A DNA stretch of 35,894 bases, from positions 1 through 35,894 of the forward strand of contig CAWVYO010000003.1 of NCBI GenBank assembly GCA_963934385.1. Direction: 5' to 3'. The stretch is from an uncultured bacterium. GTDB lineage: Bacteria; Myxococcota_A; UBA796; CAJQPC01. Position numbers and translations under genes: made by a program. The notes below the pieces were generated by a model. That model made no database searches. It saw only the letters and a list, made by a program, of their open reading frames with translations, and was not told where the DNA came from. The first letter of the stretch is position 1. Each line of letters starts with the position of its first letter. Positions 14,544 through 27,836 of this stretch are shown here, one piece after another.

Positions 14544-14582
14544 TTTGGCCTCTTTACTCTTTTGGCCTCTTTACTCTTTTGG
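14544..14582. repeat. 17-bp tandem duplication (2.3 copies) spanning the cyclase stop codon
   Basis: tttggcctctttactct at 14544-14560 and 14561-14577, followed by a partial tttgg. Confidence 0.9.
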
Positions 14583-16103
14583 GCTCATAAGTCGAACGAT
14601 AGATGTACCCATTACTACAATATCGCCGTCTTTAGCGGGAGCGGTTCCCTCGACTTTCTCGAGTTCGTTGCCGTTTTGAAGTAACCAAGTGATACAACGA
14701 TCGTGAATTGACTGAATTTCCCATGAGCCATCGTGAGCGACCGTGACAGCGGCCTGTCTCCGTCCAGCTAGTGCCCTGTCCATAGTGAAACCGCCCTGGC
14801 GCGCTTTGCTTGCTTTCTGTCCAGAGCACCACCTAACGTTCGCGTGACCCCGCCTATCTGGTAGGGCGAGCCCTGGATGAGCGGGATCTCGACCAATCTC
14901 AGCAGTACTTCCGTTGGCTATGCCGACCATTAAGGATGGTGCCGACATCAGCAGTCCGGCGTATTGTCCCGACACTGGTATGAATTTGATCGTCCCGGAT
15001 GGTGGGACTATGTTGGACTGCTCTTCTAGAGCGACTGTATCGCCCTGAGCCATTATCCGTCCGTTCAATTCTATCCCCTTTGAGAGAGCAGTGATTGCGA
15101 CGCCTGATACATTGACTTTTACCCGCAACACCGCACTGTCAGATTCGTTGCTCCAGGCTCCGTCAGGTAGCAGATCGTAGGAGTAACTGTCGACCACGTT
15201 AGCCATGGGCGCGACAGGTAGCGCAAGTCCACCCAACATCATCTGCAAGGAGGCGGTCTCTCCGAGGTCAAAGATGATGGTGTGGCTATCGTCACAGGCG
15301 GTCACCTCGTTAGCCACAAGCTCTATGGCATTGCGAATGGCATTGGGAGCCCCGACAACTAATCCTCTGCCGCTGTCTTGCCATTCGTGCCTATCAAGAG
15401 GAGATATGTTGTAAACTGCTAGCCAGATGTGGCTCTGCTCTAGAACAGGTAGGGACGATATCAACCTCTCTAAAGCATCTGAGTTAGGTGTGTAATCCAT
15501 GAGTAGAATAGTTGGATTTGGGGGGAGCGTAGTTAGAGTCGCTCCTCTCTCCATTACAGTCAAACGCCCTTGCTTAACAGCCGCCTTTATGGGCTCAGGC
15601 AGGGCACACTTCGAAGGAATAACGGCTCTAAAGACAGGCATTTTTCCAGGAAAGCCCTTCATCTCAAAAGAGCCCGTGCACTCCCAGGCAACCTCTGACT
15701 GGTTCATACAGTATTTTGTGCTTTCCGAGAACCAAAATTCGGCAGACGGGGTCTTGGCTATTACTCGTGCTGCTAAATTGACGGCGTCCCCAAAGGCGTC
15801 TCCGTCTATCTCTTCTACATCTCCCGTAGCGCATGCTGCCCGAATCAGGAGCCCTCCAGCTCTTTGTCCCTGTTCTACTGCGTCCACTCCTGCTCGGATT
15901 GCATCAGTGGCGGAAGTAAACAGAGCCATGTACGAGTCGCCGAGATTTTTTACCACTCGACCACCGTGCCGAGTGAGCACAGCCAAGGTGAACCTCTCGT
16001 GTTCAGCTATAAGCTTACGCAACTCACTCCTGTCAGATCTACCAACAGTTTGAGTATAGTTCGCCAAGTCGGTAAATAAGACCGTTCGTGTAACTGTGGA
16101 CAA
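14571..16103 (-). CDS. Class III adenylate cyclase with C-terminal FHA-like region
   Basis: VLFTD and VVKNLGD (metal Asp residues, adenine-specifying Lys) and DAFGDAVNLAAR (Asp, Asn, Arg). C-terminal EIGRD...GRRQA...DGDIVVMG. TTG start preceded by AGGAGG. Confidence 0.82.
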   Translation of the reverse strand: MSTVTRTVLFTDLANYTQTVGRSDRSELRKLIAEHERFTLAVLTRHGGRVVKNLGDSYMALFTSATDAIRAGVDAVEQGQRAGGLLIRAACATGDVEEIDGDAFGDAVNLAARVIAKTPSAEFWFSESTKYCMNQSEVAWECTGSFEMKGFPGKMPVFRAVIPSKCALPEPIKAAVKQGRLTVMERGATLTTLPPNPTILLMDYTPNSDALERLISSLPVLEQSHIWLAVYNISPLDRHEWQDSGRGLVVGAPNAIRNAIELVANEVTACDDSHTIIFDLGETASLQMMLGGLALPVAPMANVVDSYSYDLLPDGAWSNESDSAVLRVKVNVSGVAITALSKGIELNGRIMAQGDTVALEEQSNIVPPSGTIKFIPVSGQYAGLLMSAPSLMVGIANGSTAEIGRDPAHPGLALPDRRGHANVRWCSGQKASKARQGGFTMDRALAGRRQAAVTVAHDGSWEIQSIHDRCITWLLQNGNELEKVEGTAPAKDGDIVVMGTSIVRLMSPKE

Positions 16104-18529: not shown

Positions 18530-21160
18530 GTGGGTGAATTAGGCACAAAGCGAATGCCTGTGAGAAAACTCTCGGCAATGAATGTTTTAGCTTGGTGCTT
18601 TTCCATTATGTGCTTCTTGTTCATGGGTGGCGCCATAGTGGGCTATGGCACATCTCCCAGCACAACATCTGTATCTCCCAATCCAACTACTCTTTTGTCT
18701 GTCACCGTTGAGGGTGGAGATCCGTCAGAAGTTGTCGCACTAAAAATACCTCTCTTGATAAGTGAGCGGACGCTGCCCACCGACAGTACGATTACCTATT
18801 CAATCGCCGTTGATGTTCAAGATGTCGAGTCTATAAGACACCCAGCAGTCTTATTGGAGCGACCTTTGCACATGGCTTCGGTGACATGGGATGGTATAGA
18901 TGTTCCTCTCTTTTCATCACACGGTGGTGATCGACTAGATGGAGAAGGAACCCTCTTGGGGCGACTCCCGGTCATCTCTGAATCCGCTGTTGACTCCCAT
19001 CTGTTAACGGTAACTTTGACCGGGGCACACGGTTACTTGGGGGTTGCCAATGCTGTCAGTGTGGGAGAGTTTGCCGAGCTAGAGCGCTGGCAGCAATTCA
19101 GAGAGTTTAGGCTGGAGTTTGGGGCGACGGTGTTGTCGGTCACAGGGGTGGTTTTACTACTCATAGGTCTCTTTAGTAAGACTAGGGGGGAGTTTGTAGC
19201 AGCTGGGCTCTTCAGCTTGTTGATGGGGCTAACGATCTGTACTTTTGCAGATGTGTGGTCGGTCATGCCAGGGGGCTTGGAGTACAGACTGAGGATAAGA
19301 CATGCCGCAATAGGGCTAAGCCCGTTTTTTGGAATTACTGCGCTGATGTTTATTGTTCAGGAGCGCCAAGGGCAGTTCGTGTTGTTTGTTGGGGTGGCAT
19401 CATTCGCCATAGCGACAGTCGCTATGGGGTGGCCAGACTCCACAATACTCCCGTATGTGCGACTTCTTGAGCAATTGACAGCTGTTGCGACCTTGATTTA
19501 TGGCATAGCAAAGTCTTTCAAGCACAGTTTACAAGGTGTATTCGAGGCTAGAATAGTACTGGCTGTCGTCTTGGCTCTTATGGGTGTGTGGCTGTTGTCT
19601 CAGGTGCGGTACGGTATGGTTGGGGACGGTAGTCTCTTGGTGTTAGTTTTTGTCGCTGTTTGTGTCTCTATGATGATCCTCCTGATTAGGAGGTATCTCA
19701 CGTCATCCGAGCGTTACGCACAATTTGTATCAGAGGCTTTTGATGCGATAATTGTAGTAGATTCCAGCGGTATCGTTGTAGAGTCGAACGCTAGCGGTCG
19801 TTTACTGCTTGGAGGTTGGCTGGAGTGGCAAGAAGGCACTATATGCCTTTTTGAAAAAATTGAGCCGCTGGATATAGAGCTATGTCGCAAGCATGTGGCG
19901 AACAGATCCGGTGAAATTGCTGAGTTGAGGTTTCCCATTCGCCGTGGTGCAGGGGGACCAGAGCGTACAGTGCACGTTGATAGCGTATCTGTCGCCTTAG
20001 AGAATAATCTAGCCCTGCTAGTACTGCGGGACGTGACCCAGAGGAGGCAGATAGAGGGACGCATCATCTCATCCGTTAGGATGGAGACGCTTGGGATTGT
20101 CGCAAGGGGAATAGCTCACGATTACAACAACACTCTTTCGGCTGTATTGGGACAGTTGACCATGTTGGAGCACGAGGTGGAAGCGGTTGACTCGGATCTT
20201 GTACATAGAATCGAGAGATTGATCGTTGAGACATCAGAGCGTACAAGGAGGCAGTTGGCGATAGTTCGCGGTGGGAACGAGCCAAGCCGTTCTGTTGATC
20301 CAATTGACTTAGTGGAGAGTATAAGTCAGCTGGTAACTGGAACGTTGCCTGACAATGTCTTCCTTAAACAAAGTTTCGGAGAAGATCTACCCTCTGTTCA
20401 CTGTAAGGCGGTAGAAATTGAGCAGGTATTGTTGAGCCTCGTCACTAACGCTCGAGATGCGTTGGCTGATCAAGGCAGAGGGCAGATCGAGATTAGAGCA
20501 GAAAAGGCAGCTGGTGATTTCGTTGTGTTCTCTGTAACAGATGACGGTCCAGTTATTCCAAAAGAACACGCGTACATGGTTTGGAGCCCTTTCTTTTCAT
20601 CTGCAGGGAGAGATCTAGGAGCAGGGCTTGCCATGTCGGTTGTCCAGCGCGTAGTGAGGGAGCACGGTGGAAGCGTGAGTTTTGTTACGCCCATGAGCGG
20701 AGTCGGGGCCAGGTTTGAGGTTTTTATTCCCACTTCTGAAGCCACTGCACACTCAGAGCCTACTGTGGCAAGCACAAAGCTTGGACATGTGCTGGTTGTA
20801 GAGGATGAGCCTAATATAAGGGAGGTTATGGTTTCAATATTGCGTCTAAGAGGATTCACTGTGGCGCAGGCAGAGTCGTCGGAGATTGCCAGAGAGAATT
20901 ACAATCCGAAGGACTTTCAGTTGTTAGTTACAGATGTAATTATGGGTTCTGAAAACGGAATAAGTCTGGCCAAGAACTTTACGAAGATAAACCCAAGGCT
21001 TGCAGTTCTGGTCGTCAGTGGGCGGGTCCCAGAAAAACTGAGTGCATCTGACACATGGGCTTTTTTGGATAAGCCGTTTACTCCAGATATGTTGGTGGCA
21101 TCTGCTCGCAAGGCGATCCTGTTGTCCAAAGTCACTCCTGGTGAGCCTGTGTATGAGTAA
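18530..21160 (+). CDS. Membrane hybrid sensor histidine kinase (extracytoplasmic beta domain, ~7TM, PAS, HisKA, degenerate HATPase, receiver)
   Basis: AGGAG RBS then GTG. H-box IAHDYNN (His codon 20117-20119), N-box SLVTNARDA, G1 DDGPVI, G2 GAGLAM, and receiver VEDE/VTD/SG/KPF. Confidence 0.88.
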   Translation: MGELGTKRMPVRKLSAMNVLAWCFSIMCFLFMGGAIVGYGTSPSTTSVSPNPTTLLSVTVEGGDPSEVVALKIPLLISERTLPTDSTITYSIAVDVQDVESIRHPAVLLERPLHMASVTWDGIDVPLFSSHGGDRLDGEGTLLGRLPVISESAVDSHLLTVTLTGAHGYLGVANAVSVGEFAELERWQQFREFRLEFGATVLSVTGVVLLLIGLFSKTRGEFVAAGLFSLLMGLTICTFADVWSVMPGGLEYRLRIRHAAIGLSPFFGITALMFIVQERQGQFVLFVGVASFAIATVAMGWPDSTILPYVRLLEQLTAVATLIYGIAKSFKHSLQGVFEARIVLAVVLALMGVWLLSQVRYGMVGDGSLLVLVFVAVCVSMMILLIRRYLTSSERYAQFVSEAFDAIIVVDSSGIVVESNASGRLLLGGWLEWQEGTICLFEKIEPLDIELCRKHVANRSGEIAELRFPIRRGAGGPERTVHVDSVSVALENNLALLVLRDVTQRRQIEGRIISSVRMETLGIVARGIAHDYNNTLSAVLGQLTMLEHEVEAVDSDLVHRIERLIVETSERTRRQLAIVRGGNEPSRSVDPIDLVESISQLVTGTLPDNVFLKQSFGEDLPSVHCKAVEIEQVLLSLVTNARDALADQGRGQIEIRAEKAAGDFVVFSVTDDGPVIPKEHAYMVWSPFFSSAGRDLGAGLAMSVVQRVVREHGGSVSFVTPMSGVGARFEVFIPTSEATAHSEPTVASTKLGHVLVVEDEPNIREVMVSILRLRGFTVAQAESSEIARENYNPKDFQLLVTDVIMGSENGISLAKNFTKINPRLAVLVVSGRVPEKLSASDTWAFLDKPFTPDMLVASARKAILLSKVTPGEPVYE

Positions 21161-23330
21161 TAAAGACACTATTTTCACTAGTTTATGGAACAACTGGTGG
21201 TTGAATGTTGCCGCCATTTTGGTAGTCCTAGGCTTGATGCTTCTTTTTCTGGGACGAGCGGTTGGTGGAGAGGTTGAATTCATTAGGGGGGCATATCCAG
21301 CGACCTCTCAGTCGATAGCAACCCAAGCATCGGAAATTGAGCACGAATCGTTCGACCTCGTCGGCGACTTTGTGGCCCAAGGCATAGCTGGGGACTCAAC
21401 AGTTACTTGGACTATTCCCCTGGAATTAACCTCGGATGTTGAACAGATGACATGGGGGTTATACGGCGCCCTATTTTCTTCTCAGGTGACATGGGACGGA
21501 GAAGTTGTTGGTGGCGTGGGTAGCTTCAGCGAAACTTCAGATGTCGATTCCACTATTGGTCGCATCATGGTGACTGTACCACCGGAGCAGAGTCTGGCAG
21601 GTCATCACGAATTACAGCTGACTGTGGTTGGAAAATACGGTGAAGGTAGAATGTCAGGTGAGCTGGTGTGGGGAACAAGAGCTGAAGTGCTCTCTCACTA
21701 TCGGCATCTACGATTTTTGACCTATATGGTTGAAGGCGCTTTTACGGTGTTGGCTATTACATTTCTGCTCATCGCAGCATTTGGATTTCAGCGAGAAGAA
21801 TTCCTTATTTGGGGCTGGTATCTTTTCAGCATGAGTTTGATAACTCCTGCCTTTTCGGGCATGTGGGATCTGTTCTCTGAGTCAGGGGATTTACAACGGC
21901 GAATACAGTTTGTTGGTATGGTAGTGGTCCCTCTGTCCACGATCTTACAGCCAGCATGGATGGGGAGGGTACACCGTAAAAAGTGGATTGTTGTTCCGGT
22001 GGTGGTGCTTTCAGTTATTGGTATCCTTGCCGGATCTATTTTAGACTTGAGGACCCTAGTTCTTCTTCGGAATTGGGTGGGAGTCCTAGCTCTTTTAGTT
22101 GTGGTCGCAGCAACTATTTGGATTGATTATTTGGCCTTCAAAGGTAACCGTGAGGCCAAGTTTTTTGCAGTTATTGCGGTGTTGTTGGGCGTTGGCGCCG
22201 TGTCGGCTATTATCGCGACAATGGGGCTTACAGCGGACTATCAATTGATGTTGCCGTGTGCTGCTATCTCTTCTGCTGCTACGGCAGTCTACTTCATTGT
22301 CAGGCATTCGAGTCTGGCAAATAGATATGCGATCCTTCTGGATAGTGTTGGTGATGGGATCATTGTTGTGGATCGGGGCGGGATAATCCGCGAGGCTAAT
22401 CTGGCTGCTAAAAATCTGCTGGGTGGGAAACTTGGTCAGTTCAAGGATTCTTTGAGGAAAAGTGAATACGAGATATTTACGGCCCATGCTTATGGAGCGC
22501 GGGTGGGTCACCGGGAGGAGTTTCATCTCGACAGAGAGAATGGTAATACAGTAGTAGAAAGTATTTCAGTGAACCTGATAGATGGCACAACGCTGTTGTC
22601 GCTTAGAGATATACGAGAGCGAATGGAGCTCGAGTTGGAAATGGCTCAAGCTGCGCGTATTGAGACCACAGAGCTAGTTGTTATCGAGCTTGCTAGAGAT
22701 CTCAGGTCTTGTGTGTCATCAATAAGTGCTGCTGCTGATCGTCTAAAGAGTGTCTGCTCTAAGGGCAAAGCCAAAAATAGATATGATCGGTTCGTTGATG
22801 TTTTAGGGAGATGTTCAGACCTTGGAGACCAGTTATCGATGTTGGCTTCAGGGGTTGGTGTTGAGGCTCAAGAATTCATTCTGGACGATGCCTTGAGAGG
22901 CGTGCTCGATTCACTAGATCAAAGTTTGGGAGAAAAGGTAACAGTTCACCGTAAACTAGGCGTTAGCGGTCTCATGGTACTAGGGGTGATTCAAGAGATT
23001 GAGAGTATCTTTGTGAACCTGATCTTTAACTCACGTGATGCATTGGGTGACAATGGGGGAAACGTTTGGATAGAGAGCCAAAAAAATGGTGATGTTGTTG
23101 ATATTTCATTTGAAGATGATGGTCCTGGGATCCCGGAGGAGCTGCGGGAGAGAGTGTGGGAACCGTTCTTTTCAACAAAAGCCCGAGGGCACGGAGGGGG
23201 AGTGGGGCTGTCCGTAGTGGCTCGCGTAATTAGGCGTCACAACGGTCAGTGCATAATCGAGCGAGGCGACCGAGCTGGCGGCGCCAGATTAGTTGTGTCT
23301 TTGCCTATCGCCAGCACGTTGACTCTATGA
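21153..23330 (+). CDS. Membrane sensor kinase paralog lacking the phosphoacceptor His (extracytoplasmic domain, ~7TM, PAS, HATPase)
   Basis: ATG at 21153 overlaps the upstream TAA. The H-box equivalent is LARDLRS; VNLIFNSRDA, DDGPGI, PFFSTK and GGGVGL are intact. Confidence 0.85.
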   Translation: MSNKDTIFTSLWNNWWLNVAAILVVLGLMLLFLGRAVGGEVEFIRGAYPATSQSIATQASEIEHESFDLVGDFVAQGIAGDSTVTWTIPLELTSDVEQMTWGLYGALFSSQVTWDGEVVGGVGSFSETSDVDSTIGRIMVTVPPEQSLAGHHELQLTVVGKYGEGRMSGELVWGTRAEVLSHYRHLRFLTYMVEGAFTVLAITFLLIAAFGFQREEFLIWGWYLFSMSLITPAFSGMWDLFSESGDLQRRIQFVGMVVVPLSTILQPAWMGRVHRKKWIVVPVVVLSVIGILAGSILDLRTLVLLRNWVGVLALLVVVAATIWIDYLAFKGNREAKFFAVIAVLLGVGAVSAIIATMGLTADYQLMLPCAAISSAATAVYFIVRHSSLANRYAILLDSVGDGIIVVDRGGIIREANLAAKNLLGGKLGQFKDSLRKSEYEIFTAHAYGARVGHREEFHLDRENGNTVVESISVNLIDGTTLLSLRDIRERMELELEMAQAARIETTELVVIELARDLRSCVSSISAAADRLKSVCSKGKAKNRYDRFVDVLGRCSDLGDQLSMLASGVGVEAQEFILDDALRGVLDSLDQSLGEKVTVHRKLGVSGLMVLGVIQEIESIFVNLIFNSRDALGDNGGNVWIESQKNGDVVDISFEDDGPGIPEELRERVWEPFFSTKARGHGGGVGLSVVARVIRRHNGQCIIERGDRAGGARLVVSLPIASTLTL

Positions 23331-23764
23331 TCGTGGGTTCACTTACTATAGGTTTAATATCAGGCTTCACCTTGTTGAGGTATTGTATTAGTCGTTCGAG
23401 GTCGGAAAATATCGGGTTTTCTAGGGCATCCGTGGTGCTCCCCGCAGAGGCTGACTTTTCTTACGACACTCCCATAGAGGCGGCAATAGCTGGGGCTGAG
23501 TTTGGTCAGGTCGTATGGGTGTCAGGGACACCTTTGGTGCATACTCGAGTTCACAATGTCCGCGCTGGGTCCACTGTTGAAGAGACTCTGGACATCATCA
23601 AAGTTCTGACAAAGTTGTCTCCAACAACTGTAGTTGTCAACGGGCTTGCTGGATTAGAGCCGCCTGGCTCAGCCGAGGCTCCTAACGCTGTTGTGGATGA
23701 ACTCTTGGCTAACTCGCCTGCTCCAGTACATATCTTTCTGCCAGGCGGGAGGGTGGCGAGTTAG
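23327..23764 (+). CDS. Hypothetical protein (145 aa) with N-terminal hydrophobic anchor
   Basis: ATGA overlap with the kinase stop at 23327-23330. It fills the gap up to the next gene and shows an alpha/beta pattern. Confidence 0.7.
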   Translation: MIVGSLTIGLISGFTLLRYCISRSRSENIGFSRASVVLPAEADFSYDTPIEAAIAGAEFGQVVWVSGTPLVHTRVHNVRAGSTVEETLDIIKVLTKLSPTTVVVNGLAGLEPPGSAEAPNAVVDELLANSPAPVHIFLPGGRVAS

Positions 23765-23774
23765 AGTGTGACCT

Positions 23775-25481
23775 GTGAGTGGTTCTAAAACATTGGTTGT
23801 AGGTCTAGATGGGGCCACTTTTAGGGTGTTGGACCCACTGATAGCCCGTGGGCTCTGCCCAAATATTGCGAAGCTAATCGAAACAGGCGTTAGCGCCCCA
23901 TTAAACTCGACCACCCCTCCAATGACTCTTCCTTCGTGGTCCTCATTTATTACGGGGTGTACCCCTGGAGTCCACGGGATCTTTGATTTTACGCATCGCG
24001 TCGAGGGCGAGTATGGTCTAGAGTTCACAAATTCCACCCACAGAGCTGTGCCCACGATTCACGCGCTCCTTTCTAGGCGGGGAGTGCGAACGGCGTGTAT
24101 TGCCATGCCTACAACCTACCCCCCCGAGAAGAACGACGGCGTGATGATCTCTGGGTTTGACTCACCTGTGGCGACATCAATCGACGGTAGGTTTTGTCAC
24201 CCTCCAGCCCTCTTTCACGAGCTAAAAGCCCAGTTTGGCGGGATGGCTTTTGCAGACTTTCAGGAGCTAGACATTGGGGAGGGCTGGCATGAAAAGGCGC
24301 TCAGTTCTCTCTTGTCAGAGATAGAACGCAAAGAAGAAATAGCTATTTGGTTGTTAAAGCAGGAGCGTTGGGGTCTGTTTACATTGCTGTTTGGCGAGTC
24401 TGACACGGTCTCTCATCACTTCTGGATGTTTCACGATGAGTCCTCGCCGAGGTTTGTGGATAATCCAAGGCTTAAGGGGGCCATAGAGCAGGTTTATGAG
24501 GCGCTGGATGATTCCCTTGGGCGAATATTGAGTGCTGCAGGAGCCGATGTCGTGATGATCGCATCTGATCACGGATTTGGCCCGTCTGGTGACTACGCTT
24601 TATATCTGAACCGCTATCTAGAGAAGATGGGTTGGTTGACCTACAAGAGAGATCCGTATCGCGGAACTAATGGGCTTGCCTCTGGATCTGGCTGGATCGA
24701 TAAGCTTAAGGAGATGGCGCTAGAACACCTTCCTGCGGAAGCTCAACAATCGCTAATGCGAGCGCTCCCTGATGGGTTGGTCGGTAGAATCGAGAGCGCA
24801 TCTAGATATGCAGATATTGATTTTTCAAAAACCGCAGCGTTCTCCGATGAGATGAACTATTCGGCGACGATTCACTTAAACAAATTAGGTCGCGATAGAC
24901 TTGGGGTGGAGATCGACACATCTAAGCTTATTTCTGATCTGTTAGATTGGAAGGTGGATGGTGAGCCTGTAGTAGCTAAAGTGGAGAGCCGTGAAGAGCT
25001 CTACAGCGGAGACTGTGTCTCTCGGTCATCAGACCTTATTTTGACCCTAAATGAGAGAGGTACAGGAGCCCTCTCAGACGGTTTTTCTTATACGCTTCTG
25101 CCTTCTGGGAGAGTGCCAACAGGGACAACTTTTAGGAAAATGAAGGGCGACGAACTTGTTGGTGGTAAGGGGCGTGGGATGAACGGTAGTCACCGCCAGC
25201 ATGGAGTGCTTGTTGTGAATGGTCAAGGCGTCCGTAGTGGGGTGCAGGTAGAGGCGAGTATGCAGGACTGTATCCCGACTTTACTGGCCCTCATGGGAGA
25301 GGCGATACCTGATTGGTGTGATGGCTCGGTTATAATGTCCGCACTAGAAGGCGTTAGCCCCAGATACACTGAGCGAGGATGCGAGTGGTTTGGTAAACAA
25401 GGCGCTGGTGGCGACCCCCATCGAGACCTCTCAGATGATGTTGAAATACGTCGGCGCCTAAGGTCGCTAGGGTACCTATAG
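23775..25481 (+). CDS. Alkaline phosphatase superfamily / type I phosphodiesterase-nucleotide pyrophosphatase
   Basis: VGLDGAT, STTPPMTLPSW (Thr nucleophile), GVHGIFDF, DTVSH, SDHGF, GSHRQHG and C-terminal RLRSLGYL. Confidence 0.88.
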   Translation: MSGSKTLVVGLDGATFRVLDPLIARGLCPNIAKLIETGVSAPLNSTTPPMTLPSWSSFITGCTPGVHGIFDFTHRVEGEYGLEFTNSTHRAVPTIHALLSRRGVRTACIAMPTTYPPEKNDGVMISGFDSPVATSIDGRFCHPPALFHELKAQFGGMAFADFQELDIGEGWHEKALSSLLSEIERKEEIAIWLLKQERWGLFTLLFGESDTVSHHFWMFHDESSPRFVDNPRLKGAIEQVYEALDDSLGRILSAAGADVVMIASDHGFGPSGDYALYLNRYLEKMGWLTYKRDPYRGTNGLASGSGWIDKLKEMALEHLPAEAQQSLMRALPDGLVGRIESASRYADIDFSKTAAFSDEMNYSATIHLNKLGRDRLGVEIDTSKLISDLLDWKVDGEPVVAKVESREELYSGDCVSRSSDLILTLNERGTGALSDGFSYTLLPSGRVPTGTTFRKMKGDELVGGKGRGMNGSHRQHGVLVVNGQGVRSGVQVEASMQDCIPTLLALMGEAIPDWCDGSVIMSALEGVSPRYTERGCEWFGKQGAGGDPHRDLSDDVEIRRRLRSLGYL

Positions 25482-26618
25482 ATGGCGACTATTGTTCAGG
25501 CTGCTGCATTTCCTTATCCAACTATGCAGGGCTCTCAGGTCTATGTGCGAGGAATGGCCAAGGCGCTTGCAAAGCGAGGTCACCGGGTGATCGTTGCTGC
25601 CTATGGTCACGGTGAAATAGATGGGATTTCGGATTTAGAATACGAGGTTGTTCGTACTCCACGTGTGCCGTTTTACAACAACCTGAGGGCTGGCCCAGAT
25701 CTTATAAAACCAGCTTTGGATTTGGCATTGGCGGCTAATCTTTTACGGATAGGTAGAGAGGCTGATATAGTCCATGCCCATAATTATGAGGCTCCAATTG
25801 CGGCGTACCTTTCACGTCTATTTACCAATGTTCCCGTTGTTTATAACAACCACAACACAATGTCAGAGGAGCTACACCAGTATTTCAAGAGCAGCACGGC
25901 GAAGCGGGCGGCTACATGGCTAGGAGGGGTGTTGGATAGGCAGGTGCCGCGACGCGCCGACGCGACTGTCGCAATTTCCGAAGAGGCGGTAGGTCTCTTG
26001 AAGGGGTTTGGTTGCCAGTCGGTGTCGTATGTACCACCAGGGGTTGACCCTGTTGATTTCGAAGGGGCAGATCCAAGCTCTATACGAACGGAGCTAGATC
26101 TAAAAGGTAGGCGTTGGGTAGTATACGCAGGAAATCCCGACGCATACCAAGACTTAGATGTTCTTGTTGACGGTGTCGCCAGCCTAAAGGATGTTGGTTT
26201 GATAATGGTATCAGCTAGCGATCTGACTGGCTGGCGGGAGCGCTCAGGTCTTCCACCAGAACGTCTTAGGTTGGTTCAAGAGCGAAGCTGGCAAGTGACA
26301 AGAGACATTATATCTGCCGCGGATGTTGCAGCCCTCCCCCGTGGGGCGTGTAGCGGCTATCCAATAAAGTTACTCAACTATCTAGGGTTGGGTGTGCCAA
26401 CGGTCTGCTGTGAAGGGTCTTACAGACCTCTCCCTGGGGTGTTTGTCTCTCCCAATTATGACAAGTCGGCCTTTGGGGAAAAGATCGAACATCTGCTGTC
26501 ACGTGATGATTTGGATCAAATAGGAGAGCAGGCTCGAGAAAACATACGCCTAAACTGCAGTTGGGACAGTCGAGCCGCCGAACTAGAGGTGGTTTATGAG
26601 CCCTTGTTGGGCTTGTAG
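25482..26618 (+). CDS. Glycosyltransferase family 4 (GT-B)
   Basis: ALAKRGHRV, DIVHAHN, VPPGVD, YAGN, PIKLLNYLGLGVP and SWD..A. Abuts the upstream stop (TAGATG). Confidence 0.88.
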   Translation: MATIVQAAAFPYPTMQGSQVYVRGMAKALAKRGHRVIVAAYGHGEIDGISDLEYEVVRTPRVPFYNNLRAGPDLIKPALDLALAANLLRIGREADIVHAHNYEAPIAAYLSRLFTNVPVVYNNHNTMSEELHQYFKSSTAKRAATWLGGVLDRQVPRRADATVAISEEAVGLLKGFGCQSVSYVPPGVDPVDFEGADPSSIRTELDLKGRRWVVYAGNPDAYQDLDVLVDGVASLKDVGLIMVSASDLTGWRERSGLPPERLRLVQERSWQVTRDIISAADVAALPRGACSGYPIKLLNYLGLGVPTVCCEGSYRPLPGVFVSPNYDKSAFGEKIEHLLSRDDLDQIGEQARENIRLNCSWDSRAAELEVVYEPLLGL

Positions 26619-26641
26619 GAAAAAAAACTTCCAAGAAAGTC

Positions 26642-26670
26642 TTGACACGTCCATAGCAATGGGCGAATCT
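26642..26670 (+). promoter_or_regulatory. Possible sigma70-type promoter for the M23 gene
   Basis: Perfect TTGACA at 26642-26647 after an A-rich tract; the -10 element at 17 bp (GAATCT) is poor. Confidence 0.3.
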
Positions 26671-26750
26671 GCATAGACTCCCCCCTTCTAAGACAGAGAT
26701 CCCCTCTCTGTTGGATGACTTTCTCTTACCAATCACGGGTAAACATAAAA

Positions 26751-27836
26751 ATGCGAACAGATCGTTACACGCCAAACCAGCCTCCTTACCTGCTATATGG
26801 TCTTCTTGGGTGCTCACTTCTTTTGAATCTTTACATGGTGGTGAATCGGGGGGGCGATTCGGTTGACTCGCCAGCCGTAGCCAGTGCGATGGTTGGGGAT
26901 ACGATGCAAGCATCTCTGGGATTTGTAGTGTCGGAGTCAACGGCACCAACCCAACAGACACAGGGCAACACTGTTGCTAGAACTGGGGCGGTAAACATCG
27001 CAACAGACGCCGCCGTGCATGTGTCGTCTAATCCATCCCAAAATATTACAGCTCCAGCTTTGGACTTGGGTGGTGGATCGTGGGAATATGTGGACGTTGA
27101 GGTCTCTCATTCTCTTGCCCGTACGTTTCAGAGGGCAGTAGGAGAAGAGTCCGGAGCATTGGCCGCTGTCTACTCAAGGCTGTTTATGTGGGATCTGGAT
27201 TTGAGGCGTGATGTACTTGGTGGAGATCGAATCTCTGTTGTGTATAGGGTTTTGGATGATGGCGGAATCGAGATCCCTGTCGCGACCTACACCAGCGGAA
27301 GACTAAGCAGAACTCTATATGCATATCAATACACCGCACCGGGCGATGCCTATCCATCGTACTGGACTGAAGAAGGTGTCGAGGTGCCTAAGCGTCTGAT
27401 TCGTGGACCTCTTAACAATTATGAGCAGATTACCTCCTTACTAAAGGATCGTCCGACTCATAGGGGAATGGACTTCAAGCTGGATATTGGCGGCGACGTT
27501 GTGAGCCCGCGTGCGGGCACGGTCACACGTGTGAACTGGAACACTGGCGCTAATGGCGGCTGCGTGGAAGTCCGGTTTGCCGACGGCACTCTTGCTAAGT
27601 TCTTACACTTGTCTGGCTCAAACGTTAGCCCAAACCAACACGTACGTGAAGGTGAGGTTATCGCATCCAGTGGTAATACAGGGCGCTCTACGGGACCTCA
27701 CCTGCATTATCAACTCGATAGAAATGGTAACAATATTGACCCCGTCGATTACCACGGTACAGAGCGCAGGCAGATAAGCAATAGCGCTGGTTTCTTGGTT
27801 GAGGTTAATAGGCTGAACGGGCTCTTGGCTCGCTAG
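26751..27836 (+). CDS. M23-family metallopeptidase (peptidoglycan DD-endopeptidase, MepM-like)
   Basis: N-terminal TM segment, HRGMD (HxxxD), FLHLS and SGNTGRSTGPHLHY (HxH). The start may be 26715 instead. Confidence 0.88.
   Translation: MRTDRYTPNQPPYLLYGLLGCSLLLNLYMVVNRGGDSVDSPAVASAMVGDTMQASLGFVVSESTAPTQQTQGNTVARTGAVNIATDAAVHVSSNPSQNITAPALDLGGGSWEYVDVEVSHSLARTFQRAVGEESGALAAVYSRLFMWDLDLRRDVLGGDRISVVYRVLDDGGIEIPVATYTSGRLSRTLYAYQYTAPGDAYPSYWTEEGVEVPKRLIRGPLNNYEQITSLLKDRPTHRGMDFKLDIGGDVVSPRAGTVTRVNWNTGANGGCVEVRFADGTLAKFLHLSGSNVSPNQHVREGEVIASSGNTGRSTGPHLHYQLDRNGNNIDPVDYHGTERRQISNSAGFLVEVNRLNGLLAR

Follow-up and report, generated by a model that had tools for sequence, protein, structure and literature searches.

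We analyzed a 35,894-nucleotide stretch of DNA from an uncultured bacterium of the GTDB lineage Myxococcota_A (contig CAWVYO010000003.1 of assembly GCA_963934385.1; hereafter, the window), which carries two overlapping genes for paralogous transmembrane sensor kinases. Gene A encodes a hybrid sensor kinase that has the phospho-accepting histidine and a receiver, and whose catalytic domain departs from the consensus at three positions of its ATP-binding motifs. Gene B encodes a paralog with canonical ATP-binding motifs, in which the histidine is replaced with arginine and the receiver is absent. Judged by conservation among orthologs and by background frequencies in related kinases, this reciprocal pattern is real, rare, and maintained. 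As the complementary split is conserved in relatives, A and B probably work only as a team. We give an even chance to a split kinase, in which the catalytic domain of B would phosphorylate A in trans within a hetero-oligomer. We favor this reading because A has lost three near-invariant positions in the very lineage that has B, whose ATP site stays intact.

Two overlapping kinase genes with complementary motif losses

A and B are full-length paralogs that share 28% identity over 694 residues (E 3e-44). A is the top match of B in its own genome (E 1.6e-45; the runner-up has an E value of 9e-17). The layout of B is that of A minus the receiver, consisting of a sensor, seven transmembrane helices (7TM), a PAS domain, a dimerization and histidine phosphotransfer (DHp) domain, and a catalytic and ATP-binding (CA) domain. 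An earlier reading of the DNA from its letters and open reading frames (ORFs), which we call the sequence-only reading, had described an 8-bp gene overlap and a common architecture, and both were borne out by the ORFs, the full-length identity, Pfam, and a structural model of the sensor part of A.

The start codons, GTG at 18530 for A and ATG at 21153 for B, agree with the N termini of the orthologs. Both those N termini and an AGGAG located 5 nt before this GTG point to 18530 as the start of A; the publicly annotated version of A (P0014, 868 aa) begins at Met9 (18554 vs 18530). For B, a start at an upstream GTG (21042) was ruled out, since the orthologs begin at the ATG and have an identical 8-bp overlap. 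We also ruled out an assembly or frameshift artifact. Contigs from other studies cover both the A/B junction and the arginine codon of B with substitutions only and zero indels; the sequence-only reading had argued that the AGA codon is not a single-base error. Near-identical DNA is present in marine and seawater metagenomes.

A carries both acceptor sites of a hybrid kinase, in agreement with the sequence-only reading. The H-box GIAHDYNN contains His530 (CAC, 20117-20119), beside which Asp531 and Asn534 are also kept, and the receiver (PF00072, 58.8 bits) contains Asp802 at the phospho-acceptor position (codon 20933-20935, within LLVTDV). The CA domain matches the Pfam model HATPase_c (PF02518) at 62.4 bits, with a cut-off of 26.4. 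Its deviations are Val675 at the second glycine of the G1 box, Ala692 at the F-box lysine, and Ala701 at the third glycine of the G2 box. Retained are the Mg-binding Asn640, the adenine-binding Asp671, and Gly673, Gly697, and Gly699; Asp671 and these three glycines are invariant across five aligned A sequences.

The alignment reproduced the altered G1, F, and G2 motifs of A as they had been quoted. Two further statements about this domain survived in part. The change of the first N-box asparagine to serine is present in the A protein of the window, whereas six of the seven A-type sequences described below have asparagine; the Mg-binding second N-box asparagine is kept in all seven. The ATP-binding motifs had also been called eroded. 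Three specific positions are indeed changed, but the domain as a whole is conserved and the nucleotide-contacting residues are kept. From the aligned sequences, the catalytic domain of A is best described as changed at specific positions, not eroded.

In B, Arg515 (AGA, 22695-22697) occupies the position of the H-box histidine, and the DHp-like stretch contains no conserved histidine anywhere. The N (NLIFNSRD), G1 (DDGPGI), F (PFFSTK), and G2 (GGGVGL) boxes are canonical, HATPase_c matches at 63.7 bits (cut-off 26.4), and the protein ends directly past the catalytic domain, without a receiver. Alignment and Pfam thus upheld the earlier description of B as a protein with four canonical boxes, arginine in place of histidine, and no receiver. 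The Pfam HisKA model matched neither A nor B at E values up to 1. Among NCBIfam models, NifL matches B at 63.8 bits, below its cut-off of 242, and CckA, EspA, and EspC are also among the sub-threshold matches. Since the H-box histidine is absent, B is, strictly speaking, a kinase homolog rather than a histidine kinase. Its sequence rules out phosphorylation at the usual site, and, with neither an acceptor histidine nor a receiver, B is predicted to be unable to signal alone.

The reciprocal pattern is conserved in orthologs

We collected B-type sequences consisting of the B protein of the window, P0003 (59% identity), P0004 (a fragment, 67%), P0204 (728 aa, 67%), and P0057, a fragment of 162 aa from the same cluster as P0204. 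All five have canonical N, G1, F, and G2 boxes. Arginine is found at the H-box position in 4/4 of the sequences that cover it (P0002, P0003, P0004, and P0204), and none of these B orthologs retains the histidine. Beyond the window, A-type sequences were P0013 and P0017 (one lineage), P0015 and P0208 (one lineage), P0016, and P0210. Together with the A protein of the window, all seven keep the histidine and the receiver aspartate. In all seven, the second G1 glycine is replaced with valine, lysine, or alanine; the F-box lysine with alanine or serine; and the third G2 glycine with alanine or valine. Such variability of the replacing residues is expected if the need for glycine or lysine was lost.

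The sequence-only reading had tied its proposal to adjacent homolog pairs in which the reciprocal degeneration is conserved, and we found such pairs at both loci (2/2) that could be read as DNA. One is the window; the other, L027, is a metagenome contig that is syntenic with the window over more than 20 kb and in which A and B overlap in the identical 8-bp arrangement (ATGACTAA). The arginine codon of B is AGG in L027 and AGA in the window, a synonymous difference. P0204 and P0208 are both encoded on a 29,800-bp contig from the same source and, judging from contig size and source only, would form a third A/B pair.

Between the window and L027, identity is 84% for the DHp domain of A and 76% for that of B, 68% and 61%, respectively, for the CA domains, and 84% for the receiver of A, which has no counterpart in B. 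These identities indicate that A and B are under purifying selection, including the unusual CA domain of A and the His-less DHp domain of B. The DHp domain is the best-conserved domain of B, and the DHp domains of A and B are only 16% identical to each other.

The deviations of A are rare among related kinases

To estimate background frequencies, we used 144 related representative kinases, a set that was chosen by similarity to the profile of B and leans to canonical catalytic domains. The histidine is present in 134/140, the second G1 glycine in 142/143, an F-box lysine or arginine in 138/142, and the third G2 glycine in 142/142, such that each of the three deviations of A occurs in at most 3% of these kinases. 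In the genome that contains the window, both glycines are present in all 18 further kinases that have the histidine and whose catalytic domain was aligned. In 6/6 single-copy homologs from related genomes, the histidine, all four boxes, and the receiver are in place.

B itself has a narrow distribution. When GTDB species genomes were scanned with the alignment of B, no B ortholog was recovered, and the sole locus found encodes an ordinary kinase. A close B is likewise absent from the genomes of 40 relatives, where the best match has 29% identity. When A and B were searched with tblastn against 48 loci with flanks of only ~1.5 kb (from L003-L041, L030 was left out), a second adjacent kinase was found only in L027.

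One distant A-like protein, P0151 (887 aa; 42% identity), is encoded on a contig of 3,767 bp. It has proline at the second G1 glycine and no F-box lysine, and its G2 box is intact; it may represent an intermediate stage of the A-type degeneration. Searches at the level of order and class for P0151 and for P0060, a His-less protein described below, recovered neither.

In the family tree, A, its relatives (including P0151), and B fall in one 12-row part of the family without being resolved as sisters. The branch that leads to the B clade is very long, at 1.32 changes per column, and an approximately unbiased (AU) test did not reject a single clade of A and B (p 0.19). Subfunctionalization after duplication, the origin that had been proposed for the pair, fits the complete motifs of the six single-copy relatives and the AU test.

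The histidine has also been lost in a separate, well-supported clade within this 7TM kinase family, with arginine in P0060, glutamine in P0065, glutamate in P0092, and serine in P0099. Three members of this clade keep the catalytic motifs and the receiver. The member with readable context (L052, 8155-10371, minus strand) is stand-alone and has lost the catalytic motifs too. As this stand-alone His-less relative did not keep its catalytic motifs, the intact ATP site of B looks selected.

Other kinase-like frames also stood out. On contig C7 of the genome that contains the window (G000), a plus-strand, stop-to-stop frame of 473 aa from 25487 has arginine at the histidine position (GGIARQLTE) and degenerate N, G1, and G2 boxes, and looks like a full pseudokinase. 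Family homologs also lie in open frames of 2005 aa (G065:C238, L048) and 1814 aa (G081:C60, L045). These long frames could be fusions with a large domain or chance open frames in GC-rich DNA.

A possible division of labor between A and B

In the split kinase that we favor, A and B would assemble as a hetero-oligomer, most simply a heterodimer formed through the DHp domains. The catalytic domain of B would bind ATP and phosphorylate A in trans at His530, from which the phosphoryl group would pass to Asp802 of the same protein. Output would depend on two different extracytoplasmic β-sandwich sensors. The catalytic domain of A would be kept because it has a structural role, binds nucleotide, or serves the phosphatase state, or because it is a weak kinase. 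We infer from these patterns the physical association, the direction of phosphotransfer, the loss of activity in the CA domain of A, and the two-input logic. The sequence-only reading had likewise proposed a heterodimer in which B would phosphorylate the histidine of A, with the pair as an AND-gate-like receptor. A more specific picture, which we offer tentatively as possible, is an obligate heteromeric transmembrane kinase in which, following duplication, B became the catalytic subunit and A the acceptor and relay. Autophosphorylation would take place solely at the interface between A and B, the two carbohydrate-binding-like sensors would be the two inputs, and gene C, which follows B, would encode a third subunit.

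In the cyanobacterial kinase Hik2, substitution of any G1 or G2 glycine is reported to be inactivating (PMC5054060). A complex prediction of A residues 500-742 with B residues 485-725 gave a score of 0.35, compared to 0.00 for the best of three controls. This is weak support: the mark is reached by 58/80 solved complexes and 2/110 mismatched pairs, and, at scores of no more than 0.60, by only 7/80 of the former and both of the latter. The contacts agreed by at least 75% between runs, and the partner pLDDT was at least 72. Since kinase DHp dimers are well represented among solved structures, the result may reflect likeness only.

A number of observations weigh against the split kinase. Besides the weak complex prediction, the 16% identity between the DHp domains of A and B could equally mean insulation against heterodimerization. 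The catalytic domain of A keeps Asn640, Asp671, and three of the five G-box glycines, is recognized by HATPase_c at 62.4 bits, and is not decaying, with 68% identity between orthologs (compared to 61% for that of B). VanS is reported to be a working kinase without the second G1 glycine, which makes no nucleotide contact (10.1101/2022.12.12.520123), and the plant kinase CSK is described as binding ATP despite altered G boxes (PMC5054060). As the nucleotide-contacting residues of A are kept, its domain is under purifying selection, and VanS is active, A may still bind ATP or even autophosphorylate. The scheme also requires a trans geometry, in a family that may autophosphorylate in cis or in trans. 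No histidine phosphotransfer (Hpt) domain (PF01627) was found in the genome that contains the window, which is 90% complete, though this genome encodes hybrid kinases. Further, adjacency of A and B has been read as DNA at two loci only, and the background set of 144 kinases favors canonical catalytic domains by the way it was chosen.

Several of these points would suit a different role for B, that of a regulatory pseudokinase that contributes a second signal to A, with A a self-sufficient kinase whose unusual ATP site works. B would tune the balance between kinase and phosphatase activities of A by binding or through inactive heterodimers, and its catalytic domain would sense nucleotide or act as a scaffold, like that of NifL, rather than donate the phosphoryl group. 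NifL, DivL, and EspC are reportedly precedents for such a role, and the sub-threshold match of B to the NifL model is in line with it. Asn640, Asp671, Gly673, Gly697, and Gly699 are all kept in A, within a catalytic domain under purifying selection, and VanS again illustrates that the second G1 glycine is dispensable in a working kinase (10.1101/2022.12.12.520123). Regulation of one kinase by another through heterodimerization is documented for RetS, GacS, and PA1611 (PMC12189002) and proposed for YiaZ/PP_2664 (PMC12551699). A regulatory role would leave unexplained why, in a comparison with 144 relatives and with 18 kinases from the genome of the window, only A has lost three near-invariant positions, and why these losses occur in the lineage of B. 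It would also not account for the full set of catalytic motifs in B, which the stand-alone His-less relative has lost. We consider a regulatory B to be the main rival of the split kinase, possible but less likely.

That A and B act separately is unlikely. B would then phosphorylate another histidine-containing protein or affect the pathway of the receiver of A indirectly, and the tandem arrangement would reflect a recent duplication. The low identity of the two DHp domains, the presence of at least 21 other kinase-like ORFs in the genome, and the weak complex prediction would all fit such independence. Set against these are the 8-bp overlap, which is kept between lineages that are ~60% identical, and the reciprocal pattern, which is conserved in all sequences found. 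Further, no B-type gene was found without evidence of an A-type gene of the same lineage (context was readable at two loci), and no other partner is encoded near the A/B locus. It is far less probable still that B is a decaying duplicate without function, as its loss of both histidine and receiver and its long stem (1.32 changes per column) might suggest. B has an uninterrupted reading frame in four lineages (59-67% identity), its DHp and CA domains are conserved at 76% and 61%, the change in the arginine codon is synonymous, and the catalytic motifs are invariant. On this sequence conservation, decay of B appears close to refuted.

Comparison with known systems

Trans-autophosphorylation of histidine kinases was established with engineered heterodimers of one His-less subunit and one subunit without a working ATP site. 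In EnvZ, NtrB, and CheA, such pairs are said to restore phosphorylation in trans, exactly as proposed for A and B. The engineered subunits are mutants of one protein, whereas A and B would be a natural pair, fixed by duplication, with a separate sensor on each subunit.

Kinase-like proteins that do not autophosphorylate are also found in other systems. In DivL, tyrosine replaces the histidine, and the protein regulates CckA rather than supplying catalysis; in Myxococcus, EspA phosphorylates the receiver of EspC and not the EspC histidine. In DivL/CckA and EspA-EspC, as would be the case for B and A, a non-autophosphorylating kinase-like protein acts via a hybrid kinase of the AHDxNN/CckA-like class. 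In neither case are the partners encoded as overlapping tandem paralogs.

RetS and LadS combine a periplasmic sandwich with 7TM, a layout that resembles the one modeled for A. In the RetS-GacS network of Pseudomonas aeruginosa, which includes LadS and PA1611, sensor kinases contact one another directly, including by DHp heterodimerization, as would be the case for A and B; no reciprocal loss of histidine and ATP-site motifs is described in the text consulted on this network (PMC12189002). The network differs in that RetS inhibits GacS, which is self-sufficient, and in that the genes are unlinked.

CheA3/CheA4 of Rhodobacter sphaeroides is a split kinase. CheA4 phosphorylates CheA3, and neither is active alone while the mixture is active (PMC3591291). 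As proposed for A and B, the ATP-binding kinase module and the phospho-acceptor are on different polypeptides. The two systems differ in how the split was made. CheA3 and CheA4 lack whole domains and belong to the CheA class of soluble kinases, docked on clusters of chemoreceptors, whereas A and B are both full-length transmembrane sensors of the HisKA-like class, split by point changes, and A retains a catalytic domain. The sequence fit to a split kinase holds for B only, which has no acceptor.

Caulobacter CCNA_03265 is a hybrid-kinase homolog without the conserved histidine, for which the authors speculate on a heterodimer with another hybrid kinase (PMC11481889). It differs from B in that it keeps a receiver and has no adjacent paralog with a degenerate ATP site.

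Our literature search, which mostly covered work outside subscription journals, turned up split CheA kinases, RetS/GacS-type networks, and single His-less hybrids. Within that scope, it found no adjacent full-length membrane paralogs with reciprocal degeneration of the histidine and the ATP site. Compared to these systems, A and B are distinct in four ways: both are full-length transmembrane sensors, the genes are overlapping tandem paralogs, the split is by point substitution, and the acceptor has a constrained catalytic domain.

Sensor modules, gene C, and the surrounding locus

To examine the sensor part of A, we modeled residues 1-392 with AlphaFold2 (pLDDT 86.8), using 42 aligned members of the family. 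The model contains an N-terminal membrane helix (16-40), an extracytoplasmic β-sandwich (~55-180) that includes the motif VTWDG, and seven helices (181-391). VTWDG is present in both A and B. In Foldseek searches, the sandwich resembled the N-terminal sugar-binding-like domain of GH2 glycosidases (rmsd ~3.2 Å over 152 columns), and the whole sensor module was weakly similar to sandwich-plus-7TM proteins such as Wntless and TMEM87A. The Pfam model 7TMR-DISM_7TM (PF07695) matched B below threshold (20.1 bits vs a cut-off of 29) and did not match A, and the DISMED2 models matched neither protein at E values up to 1. In its modeled architecture, A appears to resemble 7TMR-DISM receptors of the RetS/LadS type in layout, family membership aside. 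The features of the locus are listed in Table 1.

Table 1. Positions of genes A, B, and C and of their domains in the window
Feature	Position	Strand	Basis or remark
Gene A, hybrid sensor kinase, 876 aa	18530-21160	+	ORF call; GTG start
A sensor module	18575-19702	+	AlphaFold2, pLDDT 86.8
A PAS, residues ~392-505	19703-20044	+	Weak Pfam PAS match (E 0.06); aligned to the PAS_8 match of B
A DHp helices, residues ~506-592, H-box GIAHDYNN	20045-20305	+	84% identity to L027 ortholog
A catalytic domain HATPase_c	20306-20749	+	Pfam; motif alignment
A receiver	20786-21133	+	Pfam Response_reg (PF00072), 58.8 bits
A/B overlap, 8 bp, ATGAGTAA; B start inside A end	21153-21160	+	
Gene B, paralog without His and without receiver, 725 aa	21153-23330	+	ORF call; ATG start
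B DHp-like helices, residues ~488-575, motif LARDLR	22614-22877	+	76% identity to L027 ortholog
B catalytic domain, canonical motifs	22878-23327	+	Pfam; motif alignment
Gene C, 145 aa, N-terminal membrane helix and small α/β domain	23327-23764	+	ATG overlaps B stop (ATGA)

A, B, and C are probably translationally coupled on one message, and C, which the sequence-only reading had not mentioned, probably belongs to the same signaling unit. The C ortholog in L027 (12175-12624) is 48% identical, and its start overlaps the B stop by one base. We found one cluster of close homologs, P0203, with 90% identity. C carries a conserved R-[VI]-H-N motif, had no family match in Pfam, NCBIfam, or Atlas, and gave a poor AlphaFold2 model (pLDDT 52.2).

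The first gene downstream of C, ten bases away, encodes a type I phosphodiesterase/nucleotide pyrophosphatase; it abuts a gene for a GT4 glycosyltransferase, which is followed by one for an M23 peptidase (23775-27836, plus strand). The gene order downstream of C is the same in L027, and these genes may form an envelope-related operon under control of A and B. No response regulator or Hpt protein was found near the A/B locus. A scan for promoters and terminators between 18300 and 28000 returned fewer sites than shuffled sequences (5 vs 9.2 and 7 vs 8.5, respectively) and was uninformative as to the limits of the operon. Elsewhere in the window, the first ~65 residues of a 509-aa ORF on the minus strand (14571-16103) partially match an adenylate/guanylate cyclase catalytic domain (profile positions 10-69 of 183).

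Implications

Automatic annotation labels both A and B "histidine kinase," with source names that include "signal transduction histidine kinase," and hides the missing phosphorylation site of B. If the split kinase that we favor is correct, A and B would illustrate that a homodimeric sensor can evolve into an asymmetric machine with two sensors. The pair would provide a clean system in which to study the directionality of cis and trans phosphorylation, half-of-sites activity, and what a retained, non-canonical catalytic domain does, as well as a template for synthetic two-input receptors.

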